Shown here: positions 15,321-62,200 of the stretch, in pieces
Layout: every line of letters starts with the position of its first letter
Position numbering within the stretch: position 1 is the stretch's first letter
Notes under the pieces: model-generated
Seen by the model: only the letters and a program-made list of their open reading frames with translations
Told to the model about the DNA's origin: nothing
Databases searched by the model: none
Translations under genes and position numbers: made by a program
Assembly (NCBI GenBank): GCA_965237775.1
Contig: OZ250155.1
Span: forward strand, 4,831,814 to 4,895,813
Origin: Dehalococcoidia bacterium
Lineage (GTDB): Bacteria > Chloroflexota > Dehalococcoidia > Lucifugimonadales > UBA3495
Length of the DNA stretch: 64,000 nt
Direction: 5' to 3'

Positions 15321-16991
15321 ATGCCCACTCTTACCGGCGCTCACCTATTTATCCGATGCCTGAAACTCGAAGGTGTCAAGAAGGTGTTCACCATTGTCGG
15401 CGACACAATCCTACCCCTGGTGGACGCCGCCCACGAAGAGGGGATCGAGTTCATCGACACCCGCCACGAGGGCGCGGCAATGCACATGGCCGACGCCTAC
15501 GCCCGCATCACCGGAGAACCCTCGGTGGGCATATTCACCGGCGGGCCCGGGTTTGCCAACGCCATCTCCGGGCTTCCCGCGATCTACACCTCGGAGAGTC
15601 CGGTCATATTCGTCGCGGGCTGCGCCGAACTGCCGGAAAAAGGCATGGTCACATTTCAGGAGATCGACCAAATCGCCATGGCCGCTCCCGTAACCAAGGG
15701 CTCCTGGCTGGTCCACGACACCACGCGCATCCCTGAGTTCGTCGCCACCGCCTTCCGCACCGCGATGTCGGGCAGGCCCGGCCCTGTTCACCTCACCCTG
15801 CCCATCGACCTCCAAGAAGCTGAAATTGCTGAAGACGACCTGCCAAAGTTCCTCCCCCAGGAATACCGGAACGCAGGCCGCGCCCACGGGGACCCCGCCA
15901 TGATTGAAGAAGCCGCGGCCTTGCTGCGAGGGGCGCAACGGCCCGTCGTCATCGTCGGCAACCCGGCCCGTTACTCCGTCGCGCCGGAACAACTCGAGGC
16001 CCTGGCCGAGACCACCGGAGTCCCCGTGTTCACCGTGGAGCAGGCCAGGGGACTTCTGGACGACGAACACCCCCTTTGCTTCGGCTACGCCGACGGGGCG
16101 CTCAACCCCACGGCCCGGCGGTTCCGCGAGGCCGACGTGGCGCTGCTCTTGGGGAAACGGCTCGACCACCGCTACCGTTACGGCCAGGTATTCAACGGCG
16201 ACGCTAAAATAATCCAGGCCGACCCTTCAGAGGCGGAGATAGGCCGCAACCGCGGCGTATCCGTCAGTCTCCTCGGAGACCTCGGCGCAATCGTCGAGCA
16301 GCTTACCGCCGCGGCGAAGCGAGGGGCGAAGTCCGACATTTCAGCATGGACCGACCAGTTGGAAGCGGACCGGAACGGCTGGCTGGATGAACTGCGTTCC
16401 AGGGCCACCGGCGAGGAGCCGATGCACCCGCTGGACATATACACCAGGATAGAAAGCCTGGTGGACGACGACACGTTCATCGTCATGGACGGCGGCGACT
16501 ACGTCCAGTGGGGCCGTTCCTATTTGAAGGCGCGAAAACCGGGCAGGTTCATCCGCCTGGGCCCTCTCAGCCACTTGGGGGCAGGTATCCCTTACGGTAT
16601 GGCCGCCAAGTTGGCCCATCCTGAAAGCAAGGTGCTCGTCCTCATGGGCGACGGTTCCTTCGGCTTCTATACCATGGAGTACGACACCTGCATCCGGCAC
16701 AACCTCCCCATCACCGTGGTCATGGGCAACGATTCCACCTGGGGGATAGACAAGACTTTCCAGTTGGCCTATTTCGACCGCGCCGTGGGCACGGACCTGC
16801 GGTTCATTAGATACGACAAACTGGTCGACGCAATCGGCGGGTACTCCGAATACGTGGAGAAACCCGACGACGTGGCGCCCGCTGTGGAACGCGCCTTCGG
16901 TTCCGGCCTGCCATCTTTGGTAAACGTGGTCGTCCGCTCCGGCGCGAGCCCTCTGGCCGACGCCATGATTGCGCGGCGCACCGGGCAGTAG
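15321..16991 (+). CDS. Thiamine-diphosphate-dependent enzyme (acetolactate synthase / oxalyl-CoA decarboxylase / 2-hydroxyacyl-CoA lyase family)
   Basis: N-terminal TPP-pyrimidine domain RHEGAAMHMADAYARITG. FQEIDQ...PVTK. C-terminal GDGSFGF...N TPP-binding motif. Confidence 0.8.
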   Translation: MPTLTGAHLFIRCLKLEGVKKVFTIVGDTILPLVDAAHEEGIEFIDTRHEGAAMHMADAYARITGEPSVGIFTGGPGFANAISGLPAIYTSESPVIFVAGCAELPEKGMVTFQEIDQIAMAAPVTKGSWLVHDTTRIPEFVATAFRTAMSGRPGPVHLTLPIDLQEAEIAEDDLPKFLPQEYRNAGRAHGDPAMIEEAAALLRGAQRPVVIVGNPARYSVAPEQLEALAETTGVPVFTVEQARGLLDDEHPLCFGYADGALNPTARRFREADVALLLGKRLDHRYRYGQVFNGDAKIIQADPSEAEIGRNRGVSVSLLGDLGAIVEQLTAAAKRGAKSDISAWTDQLEADRNGWLDELRSRATGEEPMHPLDIYTRIESLVDDDTFIVMDGGDYVQWGRSYLKARKPGRFIRLGPLSHLGAGIPYGMAAKLAHPESKVLVLMGDGSFGFYTMEYDTCIRHNLPITVVMGNDSTWGIDKTFQLAYFDRAVGTDLRFIRYDKLVDAIGGYSEYVEKPDDVAPAVERAFGSGLPSLVNVVVRSGASPLADAMIARRTGQ

Positions 16992-17104: not shown

Positions 17105-17133
17105 GTTGACAATCCTGGGCTCCAAGTATATTG
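17105..17133 (+). promoter_or_regulatory. Promoter candidate for RdhA-like paralog 1
   Basis: TTGACA (17105-17110), 17 nt, TATTGT (17128-17133). Confidence 0.4.
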
Positions 17134-17183
17134 TTTTGCTCACGGCTCAATTCATCAACTAAACGACCCTGGGAGGAGCAGAC

Positions 17184-18464
17184 ATGCTTAAGATCGGCCA
17201 TGAAATAGTCCGGCCCGGCCAAAGGTTGGGCGAACCGGAAGTTAATATCCCCGTGCCTGAAGAGCTGGAAACCGTTCCTGGCATCCCTCTCAACAACCGG
17301 GAGGTCGACTGGTACGCGCGGGAGTACCCCCTGGAAAGCATGAACGTCACCGAGCGCGCGTCCCGCGACTGGGCAAACACTCTGCGCGATCAACACGCGG
17401 AAATGCGCGAGATCCGCAAAGAACACGAGAAACTCAATCGCGCCTTGATTATGGCCAGCCGGTTGACTTCCGAATTGGAGCCAACGGCTGAACCCAACGG
17501 TGAAGACCTCACCGAGTTAATCAAGCAGAAGGCCCGGGAACTGGGTTTCTGCGAAGTCGGAATCACCGCCTTCGACCACCGCTACACGTACCAGAGCAAG
17601 AAGAACCTGCTCTCCTACTACCCCAGCGTCATTTGCCTGGTGTACGAGCAGGACTTTGAGCCCACCCAGACCATCCCCAGCGTCGACGCCGAGATCGTCC
17701 ACTCCAGCACCTACCGGACGGAAGGCGCCGCGGCCCTGGAGTTGGGTAACTTCATCCGCTCCCACGGCTACCATGCCCAGGTAACCGGTTCCGGCGACGC
17801 CCCCGGCCCCTACATACCCATGTTCGTCGAAGCCGGCGTGGGCCAGTTGGGCGCTTGCGGCTACCTCTTGACTCCCCACGTGGGAAACCGGTGCCGCTTG
17901 GTCTCGGTCACCACAGACGCGGCCGTCACCTACGACAAGCCCGTCGACTACGGCATTCACGCCTTTTGCCAGGTGTGCCAGGTCTGCGTCAACCGCTGCC
18001 CGGGCCGCGCCCTAATGCGAGATAAGATCTGGTGGCGGGGACTTGAGAAGAACAAGCTCTACTTCAAGCGCTGCCGCCCCGTAATGGCCCGATACCTGGG
18101 TTGCGGCGTCTGCATGAAGGTATGCCCGATCCAGAAGTACGGCCTGAAAAGCGTCATGGAGCACTACGCCCTTACCGGCCAGGTGTTGGGCAAAGGCACC
18201 CACGACCTCGAAGGTTACACGCTGGAAGGAAAGGGCTACTTCGGCCCCGGGGAGCTCCCGACCTTCGACCGGGACTTCTTCAACATGCCTCACGGTTCCG
18301 AGTTCGAATGGGCCTTCGACCGGTTCAAGGACCGGATCAAGGGCACCGGCGGGGAGATCACGGACGAGCTGATGGAGGAATTCCGCAGTGAGATCCAAAA
18401 CCATCTCAGCCGAGAGACCACCGACCAGTTGCAGATGATGGACCAGGACCAAGACTACATCTAG
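17184..18464 (+). CDS. Cytoplasmic reductive-dehalogenase/QueG-superfamily double-[4Fe-4S] protein, paralog 1 of 3
   Basis: 426 aa. FCQVCQVCVNRCP (CxxCxxCxxxCP) and CRPVMARYLGCGVCMKVCP (Cx9CxxCxxxCP), preceded by VEAGVGQLGACGYLLTPHVGNRCRLVSVTTDAAVTYDKPVDYG. No RR/TAT leader and no TM segment. GGGAGGAG Shine-Dalgarno. Confidence 0.7.
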   Translation: MLKIGHEIVRPGQRLGEPEVNIPVPEELETVPGIPLNNREVDWYAREYPLESMNVTERASRDWANTLRDQHAEMREIRKEHEKLNRALIMASRLTSELEPTAEPNGEDLTELIKQKARELGFCEVGITAFDHRYTYQSKKNLLSYYPSVICLVYEQDFEPTQTIPSVDAEIVHSSTYRTEGAAALELGNFIRSHGYHAQVTGSGDAPGPYIPMFVEAGVGQLGACGYLLTPHVGNRCRLVSVTTDAAVTYDKPVDYGIHAFCQVCQVCVNRCPGRALMRDKIWWRGLEKNKLYFKRCRPVMARYLGCGVCMKVCPIQKYGLKSVMEHYALTGQVLGKGTHDLEGYTLEGKGYFGPGELPTFDRDFFNMPHGSEFEWAFDRFKDRIKGTGGEITDELMEEFRSEIQNHLSRETTDQLQMMDQDQDYI

Positions 18465-18507
18465 CAGTTACGGGTAGAAATACCCAAACCTGGCAACCTC
18501 GCAAGAC

Positions 18508-18547
18508 AGGCTGTCCGGGGGTAATTCCCCCGGACAGCCTATTTTCT
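18508..18547 (+). terminator. Rho-independent terminator after paralog 1
   Basis: AGGCTGTCCGGGGG-TAATT-CCCCCGGACAGCCT followed by ATTTTCT. Confidence 0.75.
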
Positions 18548-18768
18548 GGGGGAAACACCGGCCCGTGACCTTTCTGCGCCTACCTTCCCACCGCTGCGGA
18601 ACGCCCCTGGTGGAACCGGCCAAGCAGGACGTAGCCGATACTGGAAGAGTTCGTACCTTCATTACGATTTGCGTACACCTTAAACCCTTGTGTTCTACGA
18701 ATCACTATCTCACCTCAGCTAGGATTGTGAAATATCCAAGAGATATGAAAATTGCTCTCTGTACACTA

Positions 18769-18797
18769 TTGACATCCGCAACGTCGGCATATATTGT
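18769..18797 (+). promoter_or_regulatory. Promoter candidate for RdhA-like paralog 2
   Basis: TTGACA (18769-18774), 17 nt, TATTGT (18792-18797). Same hexamers as the paralog 1 promoter. Confidence 0.4.
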
Positions 18798-18866
18798 GGT
18801 GGGCAGAACTCGGACGCGTGCGTGTCGCGTGCGTCCCATAGAGGGATTTTATTGGGAGGAGAAGAT

Positions 18867-20153
18867 ATGCTAAAGATCGGCCATGAGGTCGTAAGGCCCG
18901 GCTCAAAATGGGGCGAGGTAGACGTCACCATCCCCGTACCCGAGGAATTGGAAACCGTACCCGGTATTCCTCTCAACAACCGGGAAGTTGACTGGTATGC
19001 CCGCGAATACCCGCTGGAATCGATTAACTACACGGAGCGCGCCTCCCGTGACTGGTCCAACGCCATGCGCGACCTTCACGTTGAGATGCGTGAGATCCGC
19101 AAAGAGCACGACAAGCTCAACCGCGGTCTGATCCTTGCTGGCCGCGCCACCGCCGAGATGGAGCCCGCCAGTGCGCCCACCGGCGATGACGTAACCCAGC
19201 AGATCAAAGACAAGGCTCGCGAGCTCGGTTATATGGAAGTAGGAATTGCCCCCTACGACCATCGCTATGAGTTCCAGAGCAAGAAGAACTTCACCTTCCT
19301 GCCCCACGCCATCTGCTTGGCCTATGAGCAGGACTTCGAACCCACGCAGACCATCCCCAGCGTTGACGCTGAGATCGTCCACTCCAGCACCTACCGGACG
19401 CAGGCCGCTGCCGGTCTAGAGCTGGGCAACTTCATCCGCTCCCTGGGTTACAAGGCCCACGTAATCCACTCCAGCGACGCCACCGGCCCGGTCATCCCCA
19501 TGTTCGTGGAAGCCGGTCTCGGCCAGCTCGGAGCCTGCGGCTACCTGTTGACCCCTCACCAGGGCAACCGCTGTCGGCTGATGATGGTCACCACCGACGC
19601 CAACGTTGCCTATGACAAGCCCGTCGATTATGGCATCCACGCTTTCTGCCAGGTCTGTCAGGTGTGCGTCAACCGCTGCCCCGGCCGCGCTCTCATGCGC
19701 GACAAGATCTGGTGGCGTGGTCTTGAGAAGAACAAGCTCTACTTCAAGCGCTGCCGCCCCGTAATGGCCCGCTACCTCGGTTGCGGTGTCTGCATGAAGG
19801 TATGCCCCATCCAGAAATACGGCCTGAAGAACGTCATGGAACACTATGCCGACACAGGTCAAGTCCTGGGTAAGGGCACCCACGACCTCGAAGGTTACAC
19901 CCTCGAGGGCAAGGGCTACTTCGGTCCTGGTGAGATGCCAGTATTCGACCGCGACTTCTTCGACATGCCCACCGGCACCATCGAAGACCATGCGTTCGAA
20001 GAGTTCAAGTCCAAGGCCCGCAGCACCGGCGGCGAGGTCACGGAGGAGATGCTCGAAGTGCTCAAGACCGAAATGGTCAAGGCTCTCGGCCAGGAATACG
20101 ACGTGGTCGCGATGATGGACGAGATGAACAACATCGACGCAGACTACATCTAA
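18867..20153 (+). CDS. Cytoplasmic reductive-dehalogenase/QueG-superfamily double-[4Fe-4S] protein, paralog 2 of 3
   Basis: 428 aa from ATG 18867 (MLKIGHEVVRPG), preceded by GGGAGGAG; the track ORF starts at 18822. Same Fe-S motifs as paralog 1. Confidence 0.7.
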   Translation: MLKIGHEVVRPGSKWGEVDVTIPVPEELETVPGIPLNNREVDWYAREYPLESINYTERASRDWSNAMRDLHVEMREIRKEHDKLNRGLILAGRATAEMEPASAPTGDDVTQQIKDKARELGYMEVGIAPYDHRYEFQSKKNFTFLPHAICLAYEQDFEPTQTIPSVDAEIVHSSTYRTQAAAGLELGNFIRSLGYKAHVIHSSDATGPVIPMFVEAGLGQLGACGYLLTPHQGNRCRLMMVTTDANVAYDKPVDYGIHAFCQVCQVCVNRCPGRALMRDKIWWRGLEKNKLYFKRCRPVMARYLGCGVCMKVCPIQKYGLKNVMEHYADTGQVLGKGTHDLEGYTLEGKGYFGPGEMPVFDRDFFDMPTGTIEDHAFEEFKSKARSTGGEVTEEMLEVLKTEMVKALGQEYDVVAMMDEMNNIDADYI

Positions 20154-20173
20154 ACCTTGGCCAACCCGGCGCT

Positions 20174-20247
20174 CTGGTGGGGATCCCCACCAGGGTGTCA
20201 AGCAGGAAACCACAAGGGGCCGACAGCTTGTCGGCCCCTTACTTTTC
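20174..20247 (+). terminator. Tandem hairpins / terminator after paralog 2
   Basis: Perfect 20-nt palindrome CTGGTGGGGATCCCCACCAG (20174-20193). Then AAGGGGCCGACA-GCT-TGTCGGCCCCTT (20214-20240) followed by ACTTTTCG. Confidence 0.7.
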
Positions 20248-20366
20248 GTTCATCCCTTCTCGTTCCGGCATAGACAACGCGGGATAGAGCTACGACGGGC
20301 GTGACCATCAAAATACGCGCTTATTCATATCACGAAACATAATATAAGCGTTCCATCCCCATAGGG

Positions 20367-20395
20367 TTGACAAATATATGACGAGCAAGTATCTT
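20367..20395 (+). promoter_or_regulatory. Promoter candidate for RdhA-like paralog 3
   Basis: TTGACA (20367-20372), 17 nt, TATCTT (20390-20395). Confidence 0.35.
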
Positions 20396-20449
20396 TGGCA
20401 TTACCTTGGATATACCATACCCTAGAACCAAACATACAGGGAGGAGCGC

Positions 20450-21724
20450 ATGCTAAAGATAGGCCACGAGGTCGTACGACCTGGCAAGTTCCCCGGGGAA
20501 CCATCAGTAACGATCCCCGTTCCCGAAGAATTGGAATCCGTGCCCGGAATTCCCCTCAACCAGCGCGAAGTCGACTGGTATGCCCGCGAATACCCCCTGG
20601 AAACCATGAACATCACCGAGCGGGCGTCCCGCGACTGGGCCAACACATTCCGGGACCAGCATGTTGAGATGCGTGAGATCCGCAAGGAACACGATAAGCT
20701 CAACAGGCCCCTGATTATGGCCGCACGGCTGACGGGCGACCAGGAACCCTCCGTCGAGCCAACCGGCGACGACGTCACCGAACAGATCAAGTCCAAGGCC
20801 CGTGAACTTGGTTTCTTGGAAGTCGGTATCACCTACTACGATCACCGCTACACGTACCAGAGCAAGAAGGATTGGGTGAAGTTCCCCCACGTCATATGCT
20901 TGGCCTTTGAACAAGACTACGAGCCCACCCAGACCATCCCCAGCGTCGACGCTGAGATCGTCCACTCCAGCACCTACCGGACAGAGGGTGCGGCAGGACT
21001 CGAACTGGGCAACTTCATCAACTCCCTCGGCTATCGCGCCCAGGTCCACAGCCCCAACGACAACACAGGTCCTTATATCCCAATGTTCGTGGAAGCCGGC
21101 CTCGGCCAACTCGGAGCCTGTGGCTACCTGTTGACCCCCCATGAGGGCTCCCGCTGCCGGATTATGATGATCACCACCGACGCCAACGTTGGCTATGACA
21201 AGCCCGTCGACTATGGCATCCACGCTTTCTGCCAGGTCTGTCAGGTGTGCGTCAACCGCTGCCCCGGCCGCGCCCTCATGCGCGACAAGATCTGGTGGCG
21301 CGGTCTTGAGAAGAACAAGCTCTACTTCAAGCGCTGCCGCCCCGTAATGGCCCGGTACCTCGGTTGCGGTGTCTGCATGAAGGTATGCCCCATCCAGAAG
21401 TACGGCCTGAAGAATGTCATGGAACACTATGCCGACACAGGTCAGGTCCTTGGTAAGGGCACCCACGACCTCGAAGGTTATATCCTCGAGGGCAAGGGCT
21501 ACTTCGGCCCTGGCGACATGCCGGTATTCGACCGCGACTTTTTTGAGATGCCTGCTGGCGACACCGAAGAGTGGGCCTTCAGTCAGTTCAAGGAGCAGGC
21601 TCGCTCCTCCGGCGGCGTCATCACCGATGAGATGATGGAACTCCTCAAGGAGGAAGTCTCCCGCGGCGCGGCCCAGAGCAGGGACAACCTGGAAATGATG
21701 TACGAAGAGGAAGACTACATCTAG
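20450..21724 (+). CDS. Cytoplasmic reductive-dehalogenase/QueG-superfamily double-[4Fe-4S] protein, paralog 3 of 3
   Basis: 424 aa, MLKIGHEVVRPG start, GGGAGGAG Shine-Dalgarno, identical Fe-S motif block. Confidence 0.7.
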   Translation: MLKIGHEVVRPGKFPGEPSVTIPVPEELESVPGIPLNQREVDWYAREYPLETMNITERASRDWANTFRDQHVEMREIRKEHDKLNRPLIMAARLTGDQEPSVEPTGDDVTEQIKSKARELGFLEVGITYYDHRYTYQSKKDWVKFPHVICLAFEQDYEPTQTIPSVDAEIVHSSTYRTEGAAGLELGNFINSLGYRAQVHSPNDNTGPYIPMFVEAGLGQLGACGYLLTPHEGSRCRIMMITTDANVGYDKPVDYGIHAFCQVCQVCVNRCPGRALMRDKIWWRGLEKNKLYFKRCRPVMARYLGCGVCMKVCPIQKYGLKNVMEHYADTGQVLGKGTHDLEGYILEGKGYFGPGDMPVFDRDFFEMPAGDTEEWAFSQFKEQARSSGGVITDEMMELLKEEVSRGAAQSRDNLEMMYEEEDYI

Positions 21725-21748
21725 CCCTCCCCAGTGCTCATGACTATC

Positions 21749-21823
21749 GGATGAGGGGCAAACCCCTCATCCGCCAACCCAACGGCAAAAGACGGCCCCG
21801 CCCTTGAATAAGGACGGGGCCGT
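21749..21823. terminator. Two hairpins between convergent genes (paralog 3 and the pentapeptide/TIR-like gene)
   Basis: GGATGAGGGG-CAAA-CCCCTCATCC (21749-21772). ACGGCCCCG...CGGGGCCGT (21792-21823) is followed on the minus strand by CTTTTGCC. Confidence 0.55.
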
Positions 21824-21864
21824 TATTATGCGCGGGATAGCCTTCTTGAGAGGCCCGCGTACGA

Positions 21865-23133
21865 CTAGAGCTGGAGGTCCACCACCGGGACTCCGGCGCT
21901 GCGGGGTTGCGTCTGCTTCAGCGCATCCGCCAACCGGGCTAATTGTTGCTGGTAGGTCTCCGAGTCCGACTCCCTGGTTTGGAGATTGAACACGACGTGC
22001 TCGGTCGCAATATTGCGGACCTGGCGGTTCCGGCTCTGGGTCGAAAAAGCTCCGTCTGAAGCTGCTAGGAACAGAAGCCATTGGTCCTTGGACTCCTGCT
22101 GCTCCTGCGCCTGTCGAAGGTCGTTGCGCACGCTCTCGCTCTCCAGAGTGTGCGCCGAAGAAATGACCACCAGCTTGTCATAAGGCCGGACCCACCGCTC
22201 CACTTCTTCCTGGTCCGAAGTGCTGTGCCTCTCCACCAGGGCGCTGCCCCTGGCGCCCTCGGCAAACACCCAGCAGCGGACTCCATGACCTTGCAGATCG
22301 TTTCTCAGGGTCACCGCGAACGCCTCATCCTCGTCCGCGCAGGAGATGAAACAGTCCCCCAAGGCGATCTGCGCGCCCACTATGGATGTCTGAAAGTCCG
22401 CCATTCCTTCGGGAACGCCGGCATTTCTCAGGAAGGCCTCGGCGATTTGACCCCTGGACCTGTAGAAGGAGTCAATTCCGATCGTGCTGGGGCCGTCATG
22501 CCGGACCGCATCCAACCCCTGGGCTCCGCTGAAGTCGCAGTTTTGAAACACCGTATAGCCAACGATACTGCCGCTAAACTGCGTGCCCTGCATACCAACG
22601 TTGTTGAAAATAGCCTCGTAGAAGTCGGAGCCGTCCAGGATGGCGTCGGTCAGGTCGGTCCTGGTCAAATTTGCCCGGTTTAGGATAGCGCCAGTTAGGT
22701 CCGCGCCGCTGAGGTTGGTCCCGGTCAGGTTGGCGCGGGAAAGGTTGGCGCCCGACAGGTTCGCGCCAGACAGGTCGGCGTCCGAGAGGACGATGCGGTC
22801 CATATCCGAACCGGAAAAGTCGGCCCGGGAAGACCTAGCCCCCCGCAGGTTCGCCCCGTTCAAGAGGGCGCGTGTCACGTTGGCCTGGCGCAAGTCGGCC
22901 CGGTACATGTGGCAGGGGTTCATCCGGCACCCGGAGAGGTTGGCCCGGGGCAGTGTCGCGCCCATTAAGTCGGAATTCCGGATGTCCGCTCCGGATAGGT
23001 CCACCTGTGGGATGCGCGCATAGCTCATGTATGAGGCGTTGAGGTCCAGGTTCTCGCCGGGGTGCTCCTCACGCCAACGGGCCACGGTATCCCGGCCCCG
23101 CTTTACGAGTTGTACGTGTTCCATGTTGGCCAT
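21865..23133 (-). CDS. Pentapeptide-repeat protein with C-terminal TIR-like domain
   Basis: About 170 aa of A(D/N)L(S/T/R)G-type pentapeptide repeats (ADLSGANLSGANLSRANLTGTNLSGADLTGAILNRANL). Linker HDGPSTIGIDSFYRSRGQIAEAFLRNAGVPE. Then CFISCADEDEAFAVTLRNDLQGHGVRCWVF...KLVVISSAHTLESESVRNDL, resembling the bacterial TIR core. Start set to ATG 23133 (GGAGCG Shine-Dalgarno); the track ORF starts at TTG 23154. Confidence 0.65.
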   Translation of the reverse strand: MANMEHVQLVKRGRDTVARWREEHPGENLDLNASYMSYARIPQVDLSGADIRNSDLMGATLPRANLSGCRMNPCHMYRADLRQANVTRALLNGANLRGARSSRADFSGSDMDRIVLSDADLSGANLSGANLSRANLTGTNLSGADLTGAILNRANLTRTDLTDAILDGSDFYEAIFNNVGMQGTQFSGSIVGYTVFQNCDFSGAQGLDAVRHDGPSTIGIDSFYRSRGQIAEAFLRNAGVPEGMADFQTSIVGAQIALGDCFISCADEDEAFAVTLRNDLQGHGVRCWVFAEGARGSALVERHSTSDQEEVERWVRPYDKLVVISSAHTLESESVRNDLRQAQEQQESKDQWLLFLAASDGAFSTQSRNRQVRNIATEHVVFNLQTRESDSETYQQQLARLADALKQTQPRSAGVPVVDLQL

Positions 23134-23238
23134 ATCAGCCGCTCCAAACGACAACCGAATTAGGACTTAGCAGATGGAATTTTAGCATACGCTCTTATGC
23201 GAGTTGAATCGTGAATTGGCTCCAGACACCCTCGAATC

Positions 23239-23592
23239 TCACCGGTTAACGGCGATAATCGCCCTCCGGTGAGTCCCTTCGCCGATCTTGGTCTCGCCAT
23301 CGAAGGCCACCACGTTGAACAATAGCCGGTTACGGTCCACCTCGACCAACTCCGCATGCGCGGTGATGGTCGCGCCTATGTCGGCCGGAGCCATGTGACG
23401 GACATTGACTTCGTACCCCACCGAGGTCTGGCTATCATCCAGCGTTCCCCTGACAGCCTCTATGGACGCCCCCTCCATCAGACCTATCATGGACGGGGTG
23501 CTGAACTTGCTCACGTGGGTGGCGACGTTGTGTTCGCAGACTATGGTCTGCCGCTCGCCCTTCAGTCCGGGGGCAATTCCAGGGCTTGCCAT
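23239..23592 (-). CDS. Hotdog-fold thioesterase (FlK-like / 4HBT-type)
   Basis: FSTPSMIGLMEGASIEAV...SVGYEVNVRHMAPADIGATITAHAELVEVDRNRLLFNVVAFDGETKIGEGTHRRAII. Start trimmed to ATG 23592 (ACGGAGG Shine-Dalgarno). Confidence 0.65.
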   Translation of the reverse strand: MASPGIAPGLKGERQTIVCEHNVATHVSKFSTPSMIGLMEGASIEAVRGTLDDSQTSVGYEVNVRHMAPADIGATITAHAELVEVDRNRLLFNVVAFDGETKIGEGTHRRAIIAVNR

Positions 23593-23728
23593 AAACCGGT
23601 GCCTCCGTTTCACTCAAAATGGGTCCCGGAGATGTATCATAACAGATGAGCCGCTGGCGGCGGGGTTACCCAAGCTTGAATGGGTACCTATATTAGGATA
23701 TGATGCTGCCGGTCGGAGTGGGCATGAT

Positions 23729-44535: not shown

Positions 44536-45606
44536 CTACCTGAAGTAGGGAATCACGTGGCGGCCCATCAGCTTGATTGAATCCATGATCCGCGTGTGTT
44601 CCAGCCTTCCGGGCTGAACGAAACACAATACCTGGTCCACACCCGCTTCCTGGTACTTCTTCATCACCTCGATGACCGTATCCGGGTTGCCCATCGCGAA
44701 GGCGCCTGAGGCGATGTGGTCCTCGACGGTCTTGTCCGCCCGCTCGGTCTGCACGGCGTCAACCGCGAACTTGTAAGAGTCGGGCACCTGGCGTCCGGCC
44801 CACGGGGCATACAGGTTTTCCGCCTGCTGAACGAACCAGGCCCCTTCCTGGCCGCCTACGCGGCGGGCTTCCTCGTCGTCTTCCCCGCAATGCACGATGC
44901 ATAGAGCGGCAACCTGGTTGTTGACGAACTTGCCAACAGGGTTGGCGTTCTTAATCGCTTCCCGATAGGCGGCGACCCGTTCCTCCATCTGTGCGTAGCC
45001 GCCCAGGTTGAAGCACAGCACGCCCAGCCCCAATTCCCCTGCTTGGCGGAAGGAGTCGGGTTGGCTGCACGCCACCCACATAGGTGGGTGGGGTTGCTGC
45101 ACAGGCTTGGGAATGACCGACCGCTCGGGGATGTTGAAAAACTCGCCCTGGTGAGAGAAGGGGTCCTCCGTCCACATCTTGGGGATCATGCCAATGGCTT
45201 CCCGCCACTGGGCCCTGGTCTGCTCCGGGTCTACCTCAAAGCCGTCCATCTCGATGAGCGTCGTCGACCGGCCCGTGCCCAAGTCCATGCGTCCATCGCT
45301 CAGGATATCCAGCACCGCGGCCCGTTCCGCCACTCTTACGGGGTGGTTGTACTGGCCCGGCAGCAGTGCCACCGCATGGCCGATGCGGATCCGCTTGGTG
45401 CGTTGGGAGATTGCCCCGTAGAGCACCTCGGGGGCAGAGCAGTGTGAGAACTCCCGCAGAAAATGGTGTTCCACCGTCCAGAAATAATCGAACCCAACCT
45501 CGTCCGCCAGGTCCACCTGGGCCAAAACCTGCTTGTACCGCTCCTGCTCAACCCCCGGGTAATGCGGTTCCGGTATCTGAATCTCATACATCAGACCGAA
45601 TTTCAT
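44536..45606 (-). CDS. Luciferase-like monooxygenase (LLM-class flavin/F420-dependent oxidoreductase)
   Basis: MKFGLMYEIQ...FDYFWTVEHHF...IRIGHAVALLP...GRMDLGTGRS. Start trimmed to ATG 45606 after AAGGAGG. Confidence 0.8.
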   Translation of the reverse strand: MKFGLMYEIQIPEPHYPGVEQERYKQVLAQVDLADEVGFDYFWTVEHHFLREFSHCSAPEVLYGAISQRTKRIRIGHAVALLPGQYNHPVRVAERAAVLDILSDGRMDLGTGRSTTLIEMDGFEVDPEQTRAQWREAIGMIPKMWTEDPFSHQGEFFNIPERSVIPKPVQQPHPPMWVACSQPDSFRQAGELGLGVLCFNLGGYAQMEERVAAYREAIKNANPVGKFVNNQVAALCIVHCGEDDEEARRVGGQEGAWFVQQAENLYAPWAGRQVPDSYKFAVDAVQTERADKTVEDHIASGAFAMGNPDTVIEVMKKYQEAGVDQVLCFVQPGRLEHTRIMDSIKLMGRHVIPYFR

Positions 45607-45694
45607 GACAGTGACCTCCTTCATCCGGGGAAGTAAGTTCCTCCCCGGCCACGTTGTGTTCGGAGCTAAGATAGATTGCTGTCGATAACCACCT

Positions 45695-46795
45695 CTACGG
45701 CACCAGCATGGCCCGCGTAATCGTTGTTTGGCGCTGGTCCCACTCAGCCTGGGGGAAGGCTTCGTTGATCTCGGCCAGCGGGAACTTGTGGGAAACGATT
45801 TTGTCGAAGGGCAGCTTATCCAGGTTGCGGACCAGGAAGCTGAGCAGGGTCGGCAACAGGTCGGGGCGGTACATCAATGATCCAACGATGTTCTTCCCCG
45901 GCAGCAACTTCGATGGGTCGATGGACACCTCACGGCCTCGGACGATGTCACCGATCTCCACGAATGTCCCCCCGTTGCTGAGCATGTCTATCCCCTCGGC
46001 CAAAAGCTCGGCCCGGCCCACCAGCTCCATAACCGTGTCCGCGCCGCGGCCGCCCGTGAGTTCCTTCACCCGCTGGACACGCATCTCAACCGTGTTGAAT
46101 TCCTCGATGTTAATCGTGTAGTCCGCTCCAAACTCCTCGGCCAGCTCCAGGCGGTTCTCTAAACGGTCCAGGACGATTACCCTGTCCGCGCCCATGTCCT
46201 TGGCCATGGCCGTGGCGTTCAGCCCCAAACCGCCCGCGCCCTGGATCACAACGTTGTGGCCTTCCTTGGCTCCGGCGCGCATCAACCCGGTGGTAACGGT
46301 GCCCATGGCGCAGTTGACCGGCCCCAGGATGTCATCTGGCAGCACGTCGGGCACGCGGAACAGCGGATGTCGCGGCGGCAGATAGAGATAGTCGGCGTAT
46401 GTGGCCCGGAAATACGGCCAGGTTCCGGCGCCCGCTCCGCCGCGGTTGACGCACCAGTTGGTATCGCCTTTCAAGCATAGGTGACAGTGATAGCAGGGAA
46501 AGACCGCCGAGTAAACTATGCGGTCGCCTTCCTCAATAGGCACGCCCAGAGTATCCGTGGAAACCCCCTCGCCCAGCCGCTCGACAACGCCCGTTCCCTC
46601 GTGGCCCATCAAGCGTCCCGTGGGAGGAAGCGGATTGTTGATCTGGTCGCCCCGCCATGTGTGGAGGTCAGACCCGCAGATGCCCGCCTGGGTCATGCGC
46701 AGGATTACGGCACCCGGTTCCGGGTCGGGAACTTCGTACTCTTCGATCTCAAATGGCTTCCCGTACTCTTTGAGAACTACCACTCGTCCCAGCAT
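45695..46795 (-). CDS. Zinc-dependent alcohol dehydrogenase family (MDR) oxidoreductase
   Basis: GICGSDLH, GHEGTGVVERLGEGV, structural-zinc Cys cluster CYHCHLCLKGDTNWC, GAGGLG. Start trimmed to ATG 46795 after AAGGAGGAG. Confidence 0.8.
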   Translation of the reverse strand: MLGRVVVLKEYGKPFEIEEYEVPDPEPGAVILRMTQAGICGSDLHTWRGDQINNPLPPTGRLMGHEGTGVVERLGEGVSTDTLGVPIEEGDRIVYSAVFPCYHCHLCLKGDTNWCVNRGGAGAGTWPYFRATYADYLYLPPRHPLFRVPDVLPDDILGPVNCAMGTVTTGLMRAGAKEGHNVVIQGAGGLGLNATAMAKDMGADRVIVLDRLENRLELAEEFGADYTINIEEFNTVEMRVQRVKELTGGRGADTVMELVGRAELLAEGIDMLSNGGTFVEIGDIVRGREVSIDPSKLLPGKNIVGSLMYRPDLLPTLLSFLVRNLDKLPFDKIVSHKFPLAEINEAFPQAEWDQRQTTITRAMLVP

Positions 46796-46912
46796 AACGA
46801 ATCTCCTCCTTGGGCGATGATGCACCCTTCAGCCAATTTGCGTAACGATACCACACCCTTAGCGCACAGGGTAATCAATCCACAAATATCCTCCTATGCG
46901 CCATGCCCAATC

Positions 46913-46941
46913 TTGGCAGATTACTCCGAACCGAGTATATT
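46913..46941 (+). promoter_or_regulatory. Promoter candidate for the VOC gene
   Basis: TTGGCA (46913-46918), 17 nt, TATATT (46936-46941). Confidence 0.4.
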
Positions 46942-47008
46942 GTTGGCAATATGGGCGAAGTCAGGCTGTCAGGCCGGTAATCGCCCGAACTTGTAGGAGG
47001 ATTAGACA

Positions 47009-47458
47009 ATGGTCCAACCGAAGCGAGTGGGACATCTGGTTATCAACGTCAAGGACCAAGACGCATCCACCAAGTTTTACACTGAAGTATTGGGCTTCGA
47101 TATCGCCGTAGAGCGGCCGGGGTTCGGCACGTTCCTAACATGCGGCAGGATTCACCACGACCTGGCCCTCTTCCAGGCCGCGCCCGACGCCGAGCCAATC
47201 AAGGAAGGCGCGCTGGGATTGAATCACATGGCCCTCCAGGTGGAAGACTTTGATATGCTCACCCAGTACTATCGCAAGCTGAACGGCATGGGCATGGAGA
47301 TGCGGACCACCGATCACAGCATGACCAGGAGCATTTACATTAAGGACCCGGACGGCAACGGCATCGAGCTCTTCTGCAACTCCTTCGCCACTGCCGAAGA
47401 AGGTCTGGATGAGATGCGGCGCCCAGGACGGAAGAACGCTGAGCTGGTATTCAGCTAG
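47009..47458 (+). CDS. VOC family protein (glyoxalase / extradiol dioxygenase fold)
   Basis: VGHLVINVKD...FYTEVLGF...HHDLALF...LNHMALQVED...IYIKDPDGNGIELF. Confidence 0.7.
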   Translation: MVQPKRVGHLVINVKDQDASTKFYTEVLGFDIAVERPGFGTFLTCGRIHHDLALFQAAPDAEPIKEGALGLNHMALQVEDFDMLTQYYRKLNGMGMEMRTTDHSMTRSIYIKDPDGNGIELFCNSFATAEEGLDEMRRPGRKNAELVFS

Positions 47459-47492
47459 ACCTCGCAAGACACGGTTAACAGGCATTCCTGAA

Positions 47493-47523
47493 GGGGACCG
47501 GCAGGGACCGGTCCCCTTTTTTT
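47493..47523 (+). terminator. Rho-independent terminator
   Basis: GGGGACCGG-CAGGGA-CCGGTCCCC followed by TTTTTTT. Confidence 0.85.
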
Positions 47524-47548
47524 GTGCTAATACCGGAGGGAGGCGGGC

Positions 47549-48310
47549 TTGATTCGCGCTCTGTTTTTGGACTTTGACGGGACTTTGATCAACCACACCG
47601 GAGGCATCTCCGCTAGAGTTCAACGAACGGTAGCCGAAGTCTCCAAAAAGATGTGGGTGTCCATTGCCACCGGGCGTGAACCCTCGCACGTTATCTACTA
47701 TGCCAGGCAATTGGGGCTTAGAACACAGCAGATCGGGGACGGCGGAGCTGTGATCCTGGGCCCCGAGACCCGCGAATTCCTCTGGTCCGCCTCTCTGCCC
47801 GCCCACGATGCCAGAGCCATTATCACGGAATTCGCCAGGACCGGCACGCAGTTTCACGCCACGTATCCGGGCGGCTCCGCCAGGCAGTTGACCGAACTTC
47901 CCCACTGGGACATCACACGGGTCTCGGCCCTGGGGCTGATTGAATCCGCAGCCGACGCCCTGGCGGCACGACTGGAGCTGTCGGGCATGGTCGAGACTAA
48001 CAAGTCATACCTACCGGACGAAGACCTCTGGGCAGTGGACATCACACCCCGCGGCGTCGACAAAGGGACAGCGGCCCGCCGTGTGGCAGGTATGCTGGAA
48101 GTAGAGGGACATGAAATCGCGGCGGTCGGAGACAGCTACAACGACATACCCCTGTTAGAATTTTGCGGGTTGGCGGTGGCGATGGGCAACGCGCCTCCGG
48201 CGGTAACCGCCGTGGCGAACCATACAGTCCCCACGGCGGACGAAGACGGGGTAGCCGTGGCCATCGAACGGCTAATACTGTCCGGCGCGCAACCCCTTGC
48301 CGACGATTAA
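47549..48310 (+). CDS. Cof-type HAD-IIB family hydrolase
   Basis: LFLDFDGTL, SIATGR, GDSYNDIPLL. TTG start. The stop shares TTAA with the convergent LLM gene. Confidence 0.75.
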   Translation: MIRALFLDFDGTLINHTGGISARVQRTVAEVSKKMWVSIATGREPSHVIYYARQLGLRTQQIGDGGAVILGPETREFLWSASLPAHDARAIITEFARTGTQFHATYPGGSARQLTELPHWDITRVSALGLIESAADALAARLELSGMVETNKSYLPDEDLWAVDITPRGVDKGTAARRVAGMLEVEGHEIAAVGDSYNDIPLLEFCGLAVAMGNAPPAVTAVANHTVPTADEDGVAVAIERLILSGAQPLADD

Positions 48311-49389
48311 CGCAGAGCCGGCGCGACCTCTCTAGCGAACAGCTCAACCGAATTCAGGACCCGTTCCTTGGGCACAAGCCCTCCCACGTTCATCTCGCAG
48401 ATGAACCCGGAAAGCTGCAACTCTTCCTGGATGGCCTTTAGTTGCTGAGAGACCGACTCCGGGCTTCCGTAGGCCAGCCTGTCCTTCAAAAGGTCCTGGT
48501 AGGTAGTTGCCGCCAACCGTTGGCCCCGTTCGGCCCTTTCTTCGTCTGGAGTGGCGCCGGAGACAGCCGCTGAAGCCGCAAAGTTCTGCGCCATGCGACG
48601 ATAGGAACGCATCGTGCTGGCTTCCGCCTCTTCCAGGGCAATCTGGTCGGACTCCGCCACGTAAACCGGAATACGCAGCAAGACGTCGCCTTTGCCCTCG
48701 TGACCCGAGTCGCTCCACGCCTGCTGATATTCTCCCAGCGCGTTTACCAGGTCAGGCCGGTCCATGCCACGCAAGCCCACGAAGATGTTGTGACCCTGCG
48801 CCCCAACCCTGGGGAAAGTCTCCTTGGTGGTGGCGGCAATGCGGACTGGAGGGTAAGGCTGCTGGTAGGGTTTGGGTAGCACGCAAACGTTGTCGAACGT
48901 GTAATACTTTCCCTGGTGAGAAAACCTCTCGTTGGACCAGGCGGCCAGGATCACGTCCAGGCACTCCTGGAACCGCTCCCGGCTCTCGCCGTACGGGATT
49001 CCATACCCTTCGTAAGACCGGGCAAATCCGCTGCGGCCCACACCAAAGTCGAACCGCCCCCTGCTGACCTGGTCGACGGTGGCAACCTCTTCGGCCATGC
49101 GTATGGGATGGTTCAGGGGCAGCACGTTGACCGCCACTCCAATCCGGAGGCGCTCGGTGCGGGCGGCGATTGCGCTGGCCCAAATCAGGGGCGCGGAAAC
49201 CACGGAAGGAATACCCGCCCCCTGGTCGTCCAGAGGGTTGCGGGGAGCGGCAAAGTGGCGTTCGGCCAGCCAAACGCCGTCCAAACCGCCGGTCTCGGCG
49301 GCGTCCACCAGGCCGAAAGCCTCTGCGAATGACTCCTCTTGCGTGGAGCCGTAGCGGTAGTCACATTCCATAATTAAGCCAAGATGCAT
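48307..49389 (-). CDS. Luciferase-like monooxygenase (LLM-class flavin/F420-dependent oxidoreductase)
   Basis: LDGVWLAERHF...LRIGVAVNVLPLNHP...GRFDFGVGRSG. Confidence 0.8.
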   Translation of the reverse strand: MHLGLIMECDYRYGSTQEESFAEAFGLVDAAETGGLDGVWLAERHFAAPRNPLDDQGAGIPSVVSAPLIWASAIAARTERLRIGVAVNVLPLNHPIRMAEEVATVDQVSRGRFDFGVGRSGFARSYEGYGIPYGESRERFQECLDVILAAWSNERFSHQGKYYTFDNVCVLPKPYQQPYPPVRIAATTKETFPRVGAQGHNIFVGLRGMDRPDLVNALGEYQQAWSDSGHEGKGDVLLRIPVYVAESDQIALEEAEASTMRSYRRMAQNFAASAAVSGATPDEERAERGQRLAATTYQDLLKDRLAYGSPESVSQQLKAIQEELQLSGFICEMNVGGLVPKERVLNSVELFAREVAPALR

Positions 49390-49428
49390 TGGTCCTCTCC
49401 CCTCCGGGCGCGAGACGCGGCCCGGACC

Positions 49429-50400
49429 TTAATTCCAAATAGCGGCGATACGGTACGCCAGTTGTGTATGGGACTCCCGGACGTCTACTATCTCCGCGGG
49501 AACGTCTCCGAGGATACCCAGGGCAATTACCCAATTGAGTATTTCGTGGTCACCCGACTGCTGGATCTCCTCCGGGGTAAGTTCGGCCAGCTTGCTGCCC
49601 TGGCCTATCCGCACCAACTCCAGGTTGCGCCGGTCGGTCTCGATGTCGATGGCACGGCATTGGAATTTATGGGTCAAGAAGCTGTGGGACCAACTGGAAG
49701 AGGCCACCACCGCGACCCGCTCATCCCTGGTGTCCAGGAACCGGCGAATGCCCCGGCCCAACTCGTAGCACCGCTTCGGGGTAGGGCGGGGAGGATAGTC
49801 GGGGCCAGCTTCCTCACCGTAGCAATTAACGAATAGGGGCAGCAGGGGGAACTTGCCGTCGGGGTCCAGGAACACCAGTGGGTTGATGATGGCGTGGGCT
49901 AATCCCCAATCCCAGCCCTTGAGGGAGCTGGAGGAGGCCATGTCAAAACCGCCGCGGATCAGGTGATTGCGCATGTCCCTGGAGAACTCTTTCGGGCAGT
50001 TGAAGGAAAACTTGGTCTCCGGGTCCGCGTTCCATAGGTTGGTGCGGGCCGCGCCGCGTTGGAACGGATACCCGTCCACTTCCGCGCCTGTGTAGAGGCA
50101 GAAAGGCGGCAGATTGTCTTGCAGGAAGTTCTCCGCCTGGTCGTCACCGATGACCATCAGGACATCCGGATTCCACTCGTGCAGCTTTTCACGGAGCACC
50201 CGGAAGGACTCGATCACCTTCTTCTGGTCGCTTATGTCCTGGCTCAGCCCGTTATCCTGGCTCAATTCTTCCAGCAATTGAGCGGGGGCTTCGTAGTCCG
50301 GTATTCTGGCGAATACTCGTTCCCGGCCCTTGGACCACACCTCGGGAGGAGTAAGTATGATCGGGCCGTGGGAGCAGCCCAGCCCCAATAGTTCAGCCAT
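49429..50400 (-). CDS. Class III extradiol ring-cleavage dioxygenase (LigB family)-like protein
   Basis: LGLGCSHGP N-terminus, VIGDDQAENF, SSSWSHSF pattern recalled from the LigB/gallate dioxygenase family. Confidence 0.55.
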   Translation of the reverse strand: MAELLGLGCSHGPIILTPPEVWSKGRERVFARIPDYEAPAQLLEELSQDNGLSQDISDQKKVIESFRVLREKLHEWNPDVLMVIGDDQAENFLQDNLPPFCLYTGAEVDGYPFQRGAARTNLWNADPETKFSFNCPKEFSRDMRNHLIRGGFDMASSSSLKGWDWGLAHAIINPLVFLDPDGKFPLLPLFVNCYGEEAGPDYPPRPTPKRCYELGRGIRRFLDTRDERVAVVASSSWSHSFLTHKFQCRAIDIETDRRNLELVRIGQGSKLAELTPEEIQQSGDHEILNWVIALGILGDVPAEIVDVRESHTQLAYRIAAIWN

Positions 50401-53208: not shown

Positions 53209-54069
53209 TTACTTGAGGAATTCCTCGGTCCAGCTGTTGTAGTCGGCCTGCCGGGTAACCTGGTTCATTAGGTCCGGGGAGGCCAGTGTGTCACGCAGGT
53301 CGGCGGGTGATACACCCTCTCGCAGCGCCTTTAGCGTATCGTATACCGCCTTGACCGAAGCCTGGAAGGACAGGTGGCCCTGCAGGGCTACCCGCACTCC
53401 GTTGGCCGCCAGGAGATTCAGGTCCGCCAACTCTCCGCCGCCACCTCCGGCTATCAAGGGGATGTCGGTCTCGGCGTGGATTTGCTCCAGTTGGGCGCGA
53501 GTGCTAACTCCAGCCAGGAACATGGCGTCCACGCCAACCTCTGCATAGGCGTTGGTGCGGCGTATGGCTTCTTCCACTCCCACGATCTGCGCCGCGCTGG
53601 TGCGCCCGGCGATGACCAGGGACGGGTCCTGCCTGCCTGCCAAGGCCGCTTTCATCTTGCCCACGCCCTCTTCAATGGAAATCAGCGACGCACCGCTGCT
53701 GCCAAAGGGACGGGGGAGATCGGTATCCTCGATGGTAAGGGCCGATACTCCGGCGCTTTCCAGCTCTTCAACCGTCCGCTTAACGTTGAAGGCGTTGCCG
53801 TAACCATGGTCGGCATCCACCATCAAACTCAGGTTACCGGCGCGGCATATACGGTGGATCTGCTGGGCGAATTCGGTGAGAGTCAACACGATGATGTCGG
53901 GAGCGCCCAGCACCGTGAACGAGGCGATGGAACCCGCCAACATGCCGACTTCAAATCCCAGGTCCTCGGCCACTCGCGCCGATATGGGGTCAAACACCGA
54001 AGCCGGGTGGACGCACTTGTCCCCGGCCAGAATAGCCCGGTATCTCTCTCTTCGGTCGGTCAGGTTCAT
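53209..54069 (-). CDS. Isocitrate lyase / PEP mutase superfamily protein
   Basis: MVDADHGYGNAFNVKRTVEELESAGVSALTIED. Start trimmed to ATG 54069 after AAGAGGAG. Confidence 0.75.
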   Translation of the reverse strand: MNLTDRRERYRAILAGDKCVHPASVFDPISARVAEDLGFEVGMLAGSIASFTVLGAPDIIVLTLTEFAQQIHRICRAGNLSLMVDADHGYGNAFNVKRTVEELESAGVSALTIEDTDLPRPFGSSGASLISIEEGVGKMKAALAGRQDPSLVIAGRTSAAQIVGVEEAIRRTNAYAEVGVDAMFLAGVSTRAQLEQIHAETDIPLIAGGGGGELADLNLLAANGVRVALQGHLSFQASVKAVYDTLKALREGVSPADLRDTLASPDLMNQVTRQADYNSWTEEFLK

Positions 54070-54162
54070 ATCGCTCCTCTTATGCGATGATATACTGGCG
54101 GTCACAATCGGAAACGGCAGGCTTCAGGCCGTGGCCCATTCTATCATAAAGGGGATAGGCCA

Positions 54163-54606: not shown

Positions 54607-54629
54607 CGCAAACTTGCGAGCTGAAAAGC

Positions 54630-55825: not shown

Positions 55826-55994
55826 CTTGGTTCCCGCTATCCGATTGCACTCTCCGTACTTCTCATAGCGTAATTATAAACCGGAACACGGCGGGTAAGG
55901 GAGTCCAACATGATTTTCATGGAAAGTTGCTTCCCTTGCATCTTGCCGCTAAGCTGTTTGGCGACAGCCTATTTAAGCCAGAAGGAGGGCCGTT

Positions 55995-62164: not shown

Positions 62165-62200
62165 GAGTCCCCGGTAGTGATACCGGGGACTCTTGCTTTT
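62165..62200 (+). terminator. Rho-independent terminator after the crotonase gene
   Basis: GAGTCCCCGG-TAGTGATA-CCGGGGACTC (perfect 10-bp stem) followed by TTGCTTTT. Confidence 0.75.

Follow-up and report, generated by a model that had tools for sequence, protein, structure and literature searches.

Three tandem genes in a 64,000-nucleotide stretch of a Dehalococcoidia genome (contig OZ250155.1 of assembly GCA_965237775.1; the whole stretch is called the window here) encode cytoplasmic proteins that have the predicted fold, the iron-sulfur cluster ligands and the aligned tyrosine-arginine pair of the reductive dehalogenases (RdhA). We see about an even chance that they are soluble RdhA-type reductases with a corrinoid and two [4Fe-4S] clusters, that this dyad serves to remove halogen from natural organohalides as a catabolic step, and that the paralogues differ in their substrates. 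The surprise is not the architecture but the behaviour of these genes as core genes in a globally abundant aerobic lineage. What is new is a syntenic core locus with one to three tandem copies, old paralogue clades, a higher conservation than that of the neighbouring housekeeping proteins scored, and clade-specific residues at the predicted active-site loops. SAR202 Chloroflexota rank with the most abundant bacteria in the dark ocean and in sponges and presumably break down recalcitrant organic matter.

Fold, cluster ligands and cellular location

The three open reading frames (ORFs) all lie on the + strand, with start-to-start distances of 1683 and 1583 bp, and their products share 77% protein identity (75-80% at the DNA level; coordinates in Table 1). 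Every copy begins with MLKIGHE(I/V)VRPG and carries VEAG.GQLGACGYLLTPH.G.RCR...TTDA.V.YDKPVDYG as well as FCQVCQVCVNRCP, which is followed 24 residues downstream by CRPVMARYLGCGVCMKVCP. The reductive dehalogenase profile of NCBIfam (TIGR02486, curated cut-off 160.35 bits) matches residues ~138-317 with E-values of 1e-27 to 3e-30 and 98-106 bits, whereas the QueG profile (TIGR00276, cut-off 200 bits) reaches ~1e-9 and 33-36 bits, and Pfam returns sub-threshold ferredoxin domains only. When a family profile built from 30 diverse members was searched against the PDB sequences, NpRdhA was found at 1.4e-44, two PceA structures at 2e-40 and 4e-35, and QueG at 1e-10. An AlphaFold2 model of copy 3 (predicted local distance difference test 90.7, predicted TM-score 0.89) gave the same order in Foldseek: the top 36 PDB matches of this predicted structure are all NpRdhA or PceA (E 5e-16 to 4e-14, query-based TM-score (TMq) 0.47-0.57), after which come QueG (TMq 0.35) and then the B12 chaperones CblD and MMACHC. 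Profiles and model together assign residues ~100-320 to the RdhA corrinoid/two-[4Fe-4S] fold with a nitroreductase-like core. Because RdhAs match far better than QueG in both the profile and the Foldseek searches, the proteins are RdhA-like rather than QueG-like.

The eight cysteine ligands of the two clusters (CxxCxxCxxxCP and C...CxxCxxxCP) are C262, 265, 268, 272, 297, 307, 310 and 314 in copy 1, or C261, 264, 267, 271, 296, 306, 309 and 313 in the numbering of copy 3, and they are invariant across the 30 diverse family members. In the profile alignment, Y177 of copy 1 stands at Y246 of PceA and Y426 of NpRdhA, and R238 stands at R305 of PceA and K488 of NpRdhA; a conserved Y-K/R dyad has been described for RdhAs (PMC10463259). 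The tyrosine is present in 14/14 sequences of the close clade, its 10-residue block is 96% conserved over 113 locus copies, and the AGxGQxG loop is retained in the clade of the window proteins. In addition, residues 223-231 of copy 1 (window ~17850-17876) read GACGYLLTP in the close SAR202 clade and GANGQLLTP in the wider family, so that this loop adds a clade-specific invariant Cys and Tyr. We take it to correspond to the loop adjoining the corrin in RdhA structures.

These results agree with an earlier note on this DNA, made from its letters alone, which had described three co-directional paralogues of 426, 428 and 424 aa at the same spacing, quoted motifs that were all recovered in the three copies, and assigned the proteins to the RdhA/QueG superfamily on the RdhA side. 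Of the outcomes that the note had named as speaking against it, neither a fold outside RdhA/QueG nor an upstream start with a TAT signal was found: the profiles and the predicted structure place residues ~100-320 inside the RdhA fold, with PceA and NpRdhA as the best structural matches and with equivalents of the catalytic Tyr and Arg in the profile alignment.

The proteins have no features for export or membrane attachment, as the same note had also claimed. No RR occurs within the first 60 residues, no upstream in-frame start supplies one, and no transmembrane segment was found in the three proteins (maximum Kyte-Doolittle 19-residue mean 1.24). For copies 1 and 3 no upstream in-frame start of any kind was found. 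Copy 2 has an in-frame GTG at 18822 which would add 15 residues (VSRASHRGILLGGED), and this extension has no RR motif, hydrophobic segment or Shine-Dalgarno (SD) sequence. The spacers between the copies contain no conserved small ORF and therefore no rdhB; a 102-aa ORF at 18565-18873 in the 402-bp spacer was considered as a hidden rdhB and rejected, being conserved neither in L002 nor in L069. The family profile matches NpRdhA twice (its residues 74-221 and 348-571), and the window proteins carry one copy in their ~425 aa, without the vestigial second core domain. No C-terminal PDOR-type NAD(P)H reductase domain was found in them, and the Pfam scan detected no HEAT-like tRNA-binding domain. 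No cobalamin riboswitch or other RNA element was found in the window at Rfam gathering thresholds, nor in 14-24 kb at E<=1. No cobalamin gene and no RdhK/RdhR-type regulator was found among the scanned window ORFs of at least 180 aa, with 61348-62121 and 62177-63637 among the few left unscanned, and to this extent the absence of such genes from the 64 kb, also noted earlier, holds.

Expression units, paralogue clades and the core locus

Each copy appears to be transcribed from its own predicted promoter, seemingly a strong and near-consensus one. In the whole window TTGACA-N17-TATNNT is matched exactly three times, once 5' of each copy, where 0.02 matches would be expected by chance, and each ATG is preceded by the SD sequence GGGAGGAG. 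The closest relative (L002, 94% protein identity) has a three-copy array too, and each spacer can be aligned with that of the window only over its last ~125 bp. In this part the -35, -10 and SD elements are kept while the flanking spacer has diverged, and this footprint supports three independent, strong expression units. Copies 1 and 2 are followed by a canonical hairpin with a U-tract. Behind copy 3 there are two strong hairpins, one without a U-tract (21749-21776) and one followed by UUAUUAU (21791-21824), which are probable (bidirectional) terminators. A promoter, an SD sequence and a hairpin for each copy had all been proposed before, and the conservation of the promoter and SD elements in L002 now strengthens that proposal.

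Table 1. Coordinates of the array and its predicted signals in the window (SD, Shine-Dalgarno sequence)
Feature	Position	Strand	Basis and remarks
Predicted sigma-70-type promoter, copy 1, TTGACA-N17-TATTGT	17106..17134	+	Pattern match; boxes kept in L002
SD GGGAGGAG, copy 1	17171..17178	+	5' of ATG; invariant in L002
Copy 1, RdhA-like protein, 426 aa	17184..18464	+	ORF, profiles; paralogue clade in 19 loci
Predicted intrinsic terminator after copy 1, 14-bp stem then AUUUUCU	18508..18540	+	dG -34 kcal/mol
Predicted promoter, copy 2, TTGACA-N17-TATTGT	18769..18797	+	Pattern match; L002 comparison
SD GGGAGGAG, copy 2	18854..18861	+	5' of ATG
Copy 2, RdhA-like protein, 428 aa from ATG	18867..20153	+	ORF, profiles; paralogue clade in 6 loci
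Gene-conversion tract in copy 2, common with copy 3	19500..19957	+	458 nt, 27 mismatches
Predicted intrinsic terminator after copy 2, 12-bp stem then ACUUUUCGUU	20214..20240	+	Hairpin and U-tract
Predicted promoter, copy 3, TTGACA-N17-TATCTT	20367..20395	+	Pattern match; L002 comparison
SD GGGAGGAG, copy 3, 3-nt spacer to ATG	20439..20446	+	5' of ATG; L002 comparison
Copy 3, RdhA-like protein, 424 aa	20450..21724	+	ORF, profiles; paralogue clade in 66 loci
Gene-conversion tract in copy 3, partner of 19500-19957	21083..21540	+	458 nt, 27 mismatches
Two strong hairpins between copy 3 and the convergent pentapeptide-TIR gene	21749..21824		dG -21.7 and -25.9 kcal/mol

Close homologues number in the hundreds (77-86% identical, ~424 aa), and the named sources are metagenome-assembled genomes of SAR202, Chloroflexi and Dehalococcoidia, sponge-derived ones included. 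Their annotations are inconsistent and range from hypothetical protein through PorD, PreA and QueG to 'reductive dehalogenase domain-containing'. Among species-representative genomes, at least 562 stretches were found to encode relatives, and 80 of these loci were retained; by their titles, 79 are Dehalococcoidia, Chloroflexota/Chloroflexi or SAR202 and one is Gemmatimonadetes. The last of these (L067, NZPK01000155.1) shows the SAR202-type order of RsmI, a thiamine pyrophosphate (TPP) enzyme, the RdhA-like gene and the pentapeptide-TIR gene at 81% identity, and this contig was probably mis-binned.

When the context was assessed within ±10 kb, many of 81 loci showed a shared order: RsmI, TPP enzyme, one to three RdhA-like genes, pentapeptide-TIR, FlK-like thioesterase, OTCase, Der, PlsY and GpsA. 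A single RdhA-like copy is present in 54 of these loci, a pair in 20 and a triplet in 7, and some genomes have further dispersed copies, for example L016 and L077 on one chromosome. The full set of syntenic markers is found in 20 loci, and in 19 of them the RdhA-like protein is the best conserved. Its median identity to the window in these 20 loci is 84%, compared with 78.5% for the TPP enzyme, 72% for GDH, 68% for OTCase, 66% for Der, 64% for GpsA, 61% for RsmI and 60% for PlsY. Although the loci were chosen by similarity of the RdhA-like protein, this ranking still holds because the proteins were compared within each locus.

The 113 copies at these loci fall into at least eight clades at 80% identity, and the three window copies belong to three separate clades, each common to other genomes; copy 3, the one modelled above, has orthologues in most related genomes. 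Synonymous differences among the copies are abundant. Together with the shared clades, they point to an old, differentially retained set of paralogues under strong purifying selection. Across the 113 copies, 175/426 positions are at least 99% identical. The 12 clade-specific positions include 180-181 just after Tyr177, 202-204 and 210 in the loop aligned with C271-N272-G273 of PceA, and 240 beside R238. Since the clades differ at these active-site loops, the three copies, judged from sequence, probably take different substrates.

Copies 2 and 3 have exchanged sequence in a conversion tract where they are 94% identical, compared with 72% outside it, and where their third-codon-position identity is 0.87 versus 0.61-0.62 with copy 1. 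The tract spans the Fe-S module and a conserved C-terminal extension. The N-terminus ML(K/T)IGHE is near-invariant. The protein varies most in its last ~60 residues, yet a C-terminal DYI is kept in 110/113 copies (window 18453-18461, 20142-20150 and 21713-21721) and may serve in docking, either to a partner or to the active site.

Gene neighbourhood and candidate reactions

A 556-aa TPP enzyme (15321-16991, +) lies directly 5' of copy 1 and has the same position in 49/81 loci. Among solved structures, the closest homologues of this enzyme are benzaldehyde lyase/formolase and 2-hydroxyacyl-CoA lyase/oxalyl-CoA decarboxylase, and all its NCBIfam matches stay below cut-off. We regard it as a candidate functional partner for the RdhA-like genes; it is absent from some syntenic loci (L063, L065, L068). 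On the other side, a pentapeptide-repeat and TIR-domain protein (21865-23154, -) is convergent with copy 3 and is the most persistent neighbour (58/81 loci), present even where the upstream genes differ; it was considered as a known defence gene and gave no PADLOC match. About 1.5 kb 3' of the array, a hotdog thioesterase of the FlK (fluoroacetyl-CoA thioesterase-like) family (23239-23613, -) keeps its syntenic place in 26 loci; its name hints at a link to halogens, but the family is broad.

Elsewhere in the window, luciferase-like monooxygenases, a LigB dioxygenase, SDRs, zinc-dependent alcohol dehydrogenases and PrpD fit Dehalococcoidia/SAR202 and the aerobic-heterotroph gene set recognised earlier. 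Two luciferase-like monooxygenases, a zinc-dependent alcohol dehydrogenase and a LigB-type ring-cleavage dioxygenase are clustered at 44536-50400, which we take to be the paralogue-rich oxidative catabolism described for SAR202. A GC dip at 54001-56000 (0.525 versus about 0.60 elsewhere) coincides with a 294-aa ORF without a Pfam match (54630-55514) and could be a small acquired segment.

A recurring electron-donor or regulator partner was sought in 81 close and 8 distant loci, and the contexts were heterogeneous, with no ferredoxin or reductase gene that recurs. Relatives adjoin MFS or ABC transporters, Amidohydro_2, MaoC, CoA-transferases and IclR regulators, and some stand among MaoC hydratases, SDRs and MFS transporters. 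For example, P0138 is a fusion of a relative with an Opp/Dpp-type ABC ATPase, another relative follows an ABC ATPase after 190 bp (L084, 6697-9146), and a close homologue lies 5' of genes for a Ferric_reduct-type membrane protein and for an Opp/Dpp-type transporter that is complete (L010, 10001-19571). In a tight operon of L085 (7175-15896) the order is IclR, RdhA-like gene, TPP enzyme, CoA-transferase III, AtuA, AtuA-ferredoxin, HpcH/HpaI lyase and CoA-transferase III. The RdhA-like protein there is a distant member (39% identical) and is translationally coupled to the TPP enzyme, which suggests an acyl-CoA-linked pathway for this relative. A specific partnership with the TPP enzyme across branches was rejected: that of L085 is only 24% identical to the one in the window, so the link holds at superfamily level only. 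In L086 (5439-11485), a 416-aa member has a DMGDH/sarcosine-dehydrogenase-like gene on one side and MTHFR and GcvT on the other; this setting points to one-carbon metabolism or demethylation and is unexpected for a dehalogenase homologue. Overall, the family looks like cytoplasmic reductases set in varied catabolic clusters, and similar catabolic settings have been reported for cytosolic RdhA-like genes (Han et al. 2025, PMC12219181).

Our best guess for the reaction is reductive dehalogenation of natural organohalides; in its favour we count the RdhA family and fold, the invariant Cys ligands, the Tyr/Arg dyad, the cytoplasmic location, the expression signals, the diversified paralogues, the catabolic neighbourhoods of relatives and the B12 biosynthesis reported in deep-ocean SAR202. 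A soluble low-potential donor of the ferredoxin or flavodoxin type, encoded elsewhere, would reduce the distal and then the proximal [4Fe-4S] cluster, and electrons would pass from the clusters to a base-off corrinoid in the nitroreductase-like core. Once reduced, the cobalt would take the halogen off an imported natural organohalide, for example an aromatic compound or an acid that carries bromine or chlorine. Tyr177, which Arg238 would polarise (numbers of copy 1), would protonate the carbon, and the dehalogenated product would enter catabolism. Since the NpRdhA-type vestigial domain is missing, the protein is probably a homodimer by analogy with PceA. Of this scheme, corrinoid binding, the electron donor and dimerisation are inferred, and halide as the leaving group is its least certain part.

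Several observations weigh against dehalogenation. The TIGR02486 scores stay under the curated cut-off (98-106 vs 160.35 bits), and the Pfam profile PF13486 (Dehalogenase) gives no match even at E<=1. The tyrosine is absent from many relatives at 30-50% identity, and the window proteins do not keep S422, M423 and R552, by which NpRdhA contacts its substrate. No halogen-related gene, cobalamin gene or riboswitch was found near the array, and neither in the window nor in the sampled loci was a ferredoxin or reductase gene found near any copy. Core-gene behaviour, with a syntenic locus and top conservation, is atypical for dehalogenases, and no member of the clade has been characterised.

We consider it possible, with a probability well below even, that the corrinoid and the two [4Fe-4S] clusters are kept and that the substrate carries no halogen. 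The proteins would then be a core, constitutively expressed SAR202 reductase, with an epoxide oxygen (as for QueG), a hydroxyl or another leaving group on a common metabolite or on an acid or acyl-CoA derived from dissolved organic matter, possibly working with the adjacent TPP-dependent lyase. Such a role would suit the synteny across many genomes, the conservation above Der, OTCase, GpsA, PlsY and RsmI, the near-consensus promoters and the many positions that are nearly identical in all 113 copies from several paralogue clades; in addition, the catalytic Tyr is dispensable in many relatives. The frequency (49/81 loci) and conservation (78.5%) of the TPP enzyme directly upstream, the coupling to a TPP enzyme in the CoA-transferase/HpcH operon of L085 and the setting of the L086 relative between the DMGDH-like gene and MTHFR/GcvT point the same way. 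However, the two TPP enzymes are linked at superfamily level only, the gene is missing from the three syntenic loci named above, the window clade retains the dehalogenase Tyr/Arg dyad, and multiple diverging paralogues suit a range of substrates better than a single housekeeping reaction. To our knowledge, moreover, QueG represents the only non-dehalogenase chemistry known in the RdhA/QueG superfamily, which also counts against a reaction without halogen. That the clade is a strongly expressed core SAR202 B12/Fe-S reductase with a third RdhA/QueG chemistry on a ubiquitous non-halogenated substrate is, in our estimate, rather unlikely; one possibility for that substrate is an oxygenated acid or acyl-CoA from dissolved organic matter on which the co-conserved TPP-dependent lyase acts as well.

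The corrinoid itself might have been lost, which would leave an Fe-S oxidoreductase with an RdhA fold, for example a flavin-dependent or cofactor-less electron-transfer protein. NpRdhA does carry a vestigial, non-cobalamin-binding copy of the domain, but the window proteins resemble its cobalamin-binding copy (129 bits) and not the vestigial one (25 bits). With the Tyr/Arg dyad and the AGxGQxG loop retained, and with an extreme core conservation that argues for a conserved cofactor pocket, we regard this loss as improbable, although no sequence motif marks corrinoid binding, the core of the fold resembles nitroreductases, and no B12 gene or riboswitch was found in the window (scanned ORFs, Rfam). 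We give very little credence to a QueG-type epoxyqueuosine reductase acting on tRNA. The superfamily is shared, some sources label relatives 'epoxyqueuosine reductase' and the genes behave as core genes, but TIGR00276 gives 33-36 bits where its cut-off demands 200, the QueG structures match far worse than the RdhAs (E 1e-10 vs 1e-44, TMq 0.35 vs 0.57), the HEAT-like tRNA-binding domain was not detected by Pfam, and QueG would hardly account for one to three tandem copies plus dispersed diverging paralogues. The least probable of all is a respiratory reductive dehalogenase for organohalide respiration. The Dehalococcoidia include obligate organohalide respirers, and the window proteins have the single-core-domain size of PceA-type enzymes; against this, no TAT signal, transmembrane helix or rdhB was found, the genes present suit an aerobic heterotroph, and none of the 81 loci has genes of a respiratory complex next to the RdhA-like copies.

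If the proteins dehalogenate, natural marine organohalogens would have a large aerobic sink here, and SAR202 would be tied into the marine B12 economy; cobalamin biosynthesis has been reported in deep-ocean SAR202 (PMC11245477). If they catalyse another reaction, the chemistry of the RdhA/QueG superfamily would be extended, and a true third chemistry would mean that a bacterial lineage which is among the most abundant in the deep ocean has a major corrinoid demand that has gone unrecognised. The three paralogues, with their differences at predicted active-site loops, are a ready-made comparison set for heterologous expression.

Comparison with known reductive dehalogenases

Reviews recognise three kinds of RdhA: respiratory enzymes with a TAT signal and RdhB, catabolic cytoplasmic enzymes, and hybrids with transmembrane helices (PMC6797604). 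In the SAR202 genome papers that we examined, reductive dehalogenases are named only in reference lists or background text and not as a SAR202 gene, and a literature search on the cultured SAR202 genus Lucifugimonas found nothing relevant.

The window proteins share with the catabolic enzymes NpRdhA (PDB 4RAS, 6ZY1), BhbA and JtRdhA the cytoplasmic, TAT-less state, the Cys ligands for two [4Fe-4S] clusters and the Y-K/R dyad, and the hosts of these enzymes are marine aerobes, which resembles the window host. NpRdhA gives the best profile match (1.4e-44) and the best TM-score to the window proteins, at ~20% identity. Catabolic RdhAs are defined by a vestigial domain duplication, usually with a PDOR reductase, and the vestigial copy of NpRdhA does not bind cobalamin (PMC10463259). 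In contrast, the window proteins have ~425 aa instead of about 700-1000 aa, lack the vestigial duplicated core and the PDOR reductase, have no adjacent ferredoxin or ferredoxin-reductase genes, and do not conserve S422, M423 and R552.

Respiratory PceA (Sulfurospirillum multivorans, 4UQU; Desulfitobacterium, 8Q4H) is similar in its single corrinoid core with a two-[4Fe-4S] module, in its size and, by alignment, in the putative equivalents of Tyr246 and Arg305. Unlike respiratory RdhAs, the window proteins have no TAT leader, RdhB anchor or membrane association, score under the TIGR02486 cut-off, and belong to a host that looks aerobic and heterotrophic. With QueG (5D08, 5D6S) they share the superfamily and its B12 plus two-[4Fe-4S] architecture, and they differ in a much weaker sequence and fold similarity, in having no tRNA-binding domain, and in their multi-copy, diverging paralogues. 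The hybrid transmembrane-helix RdhAs, found by genomics only (Atashgahi 2019, PMC6797604), likewise have no TAT signal or rdhB, but they carry one to three N-terminal transmembrane helices which the window proteins lack (maximum hydropathy 1.24).

The closest counterpart in architecture is the 'simplified cytosolic' RdhA-like type of Chloroflexota and Desulfobacterota, which averages 395 aa and is biochemically uncharacterised (Han et al. 2025, Microbiome, PMC12219181). Both are TAT-less proteins of ~400 aa without RdhB, transmembrane helices, vestigial domain or reductase, and the hosts of the window clade, Dehalococcoidia/SAR202, are Chloroflexota as well; this match follows from the architectural description rather than from phylogenetic placement. 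The combination of features that the earlier note called poorly characterised is thus of a kind already known and catalogued, though uncharacterised. Within it, the window clade is distinguished by its greater length (424-428 aa), by a variable helical C-terminal tail ending in DYI, and by a conserved core locus in SAR202-type genomes.

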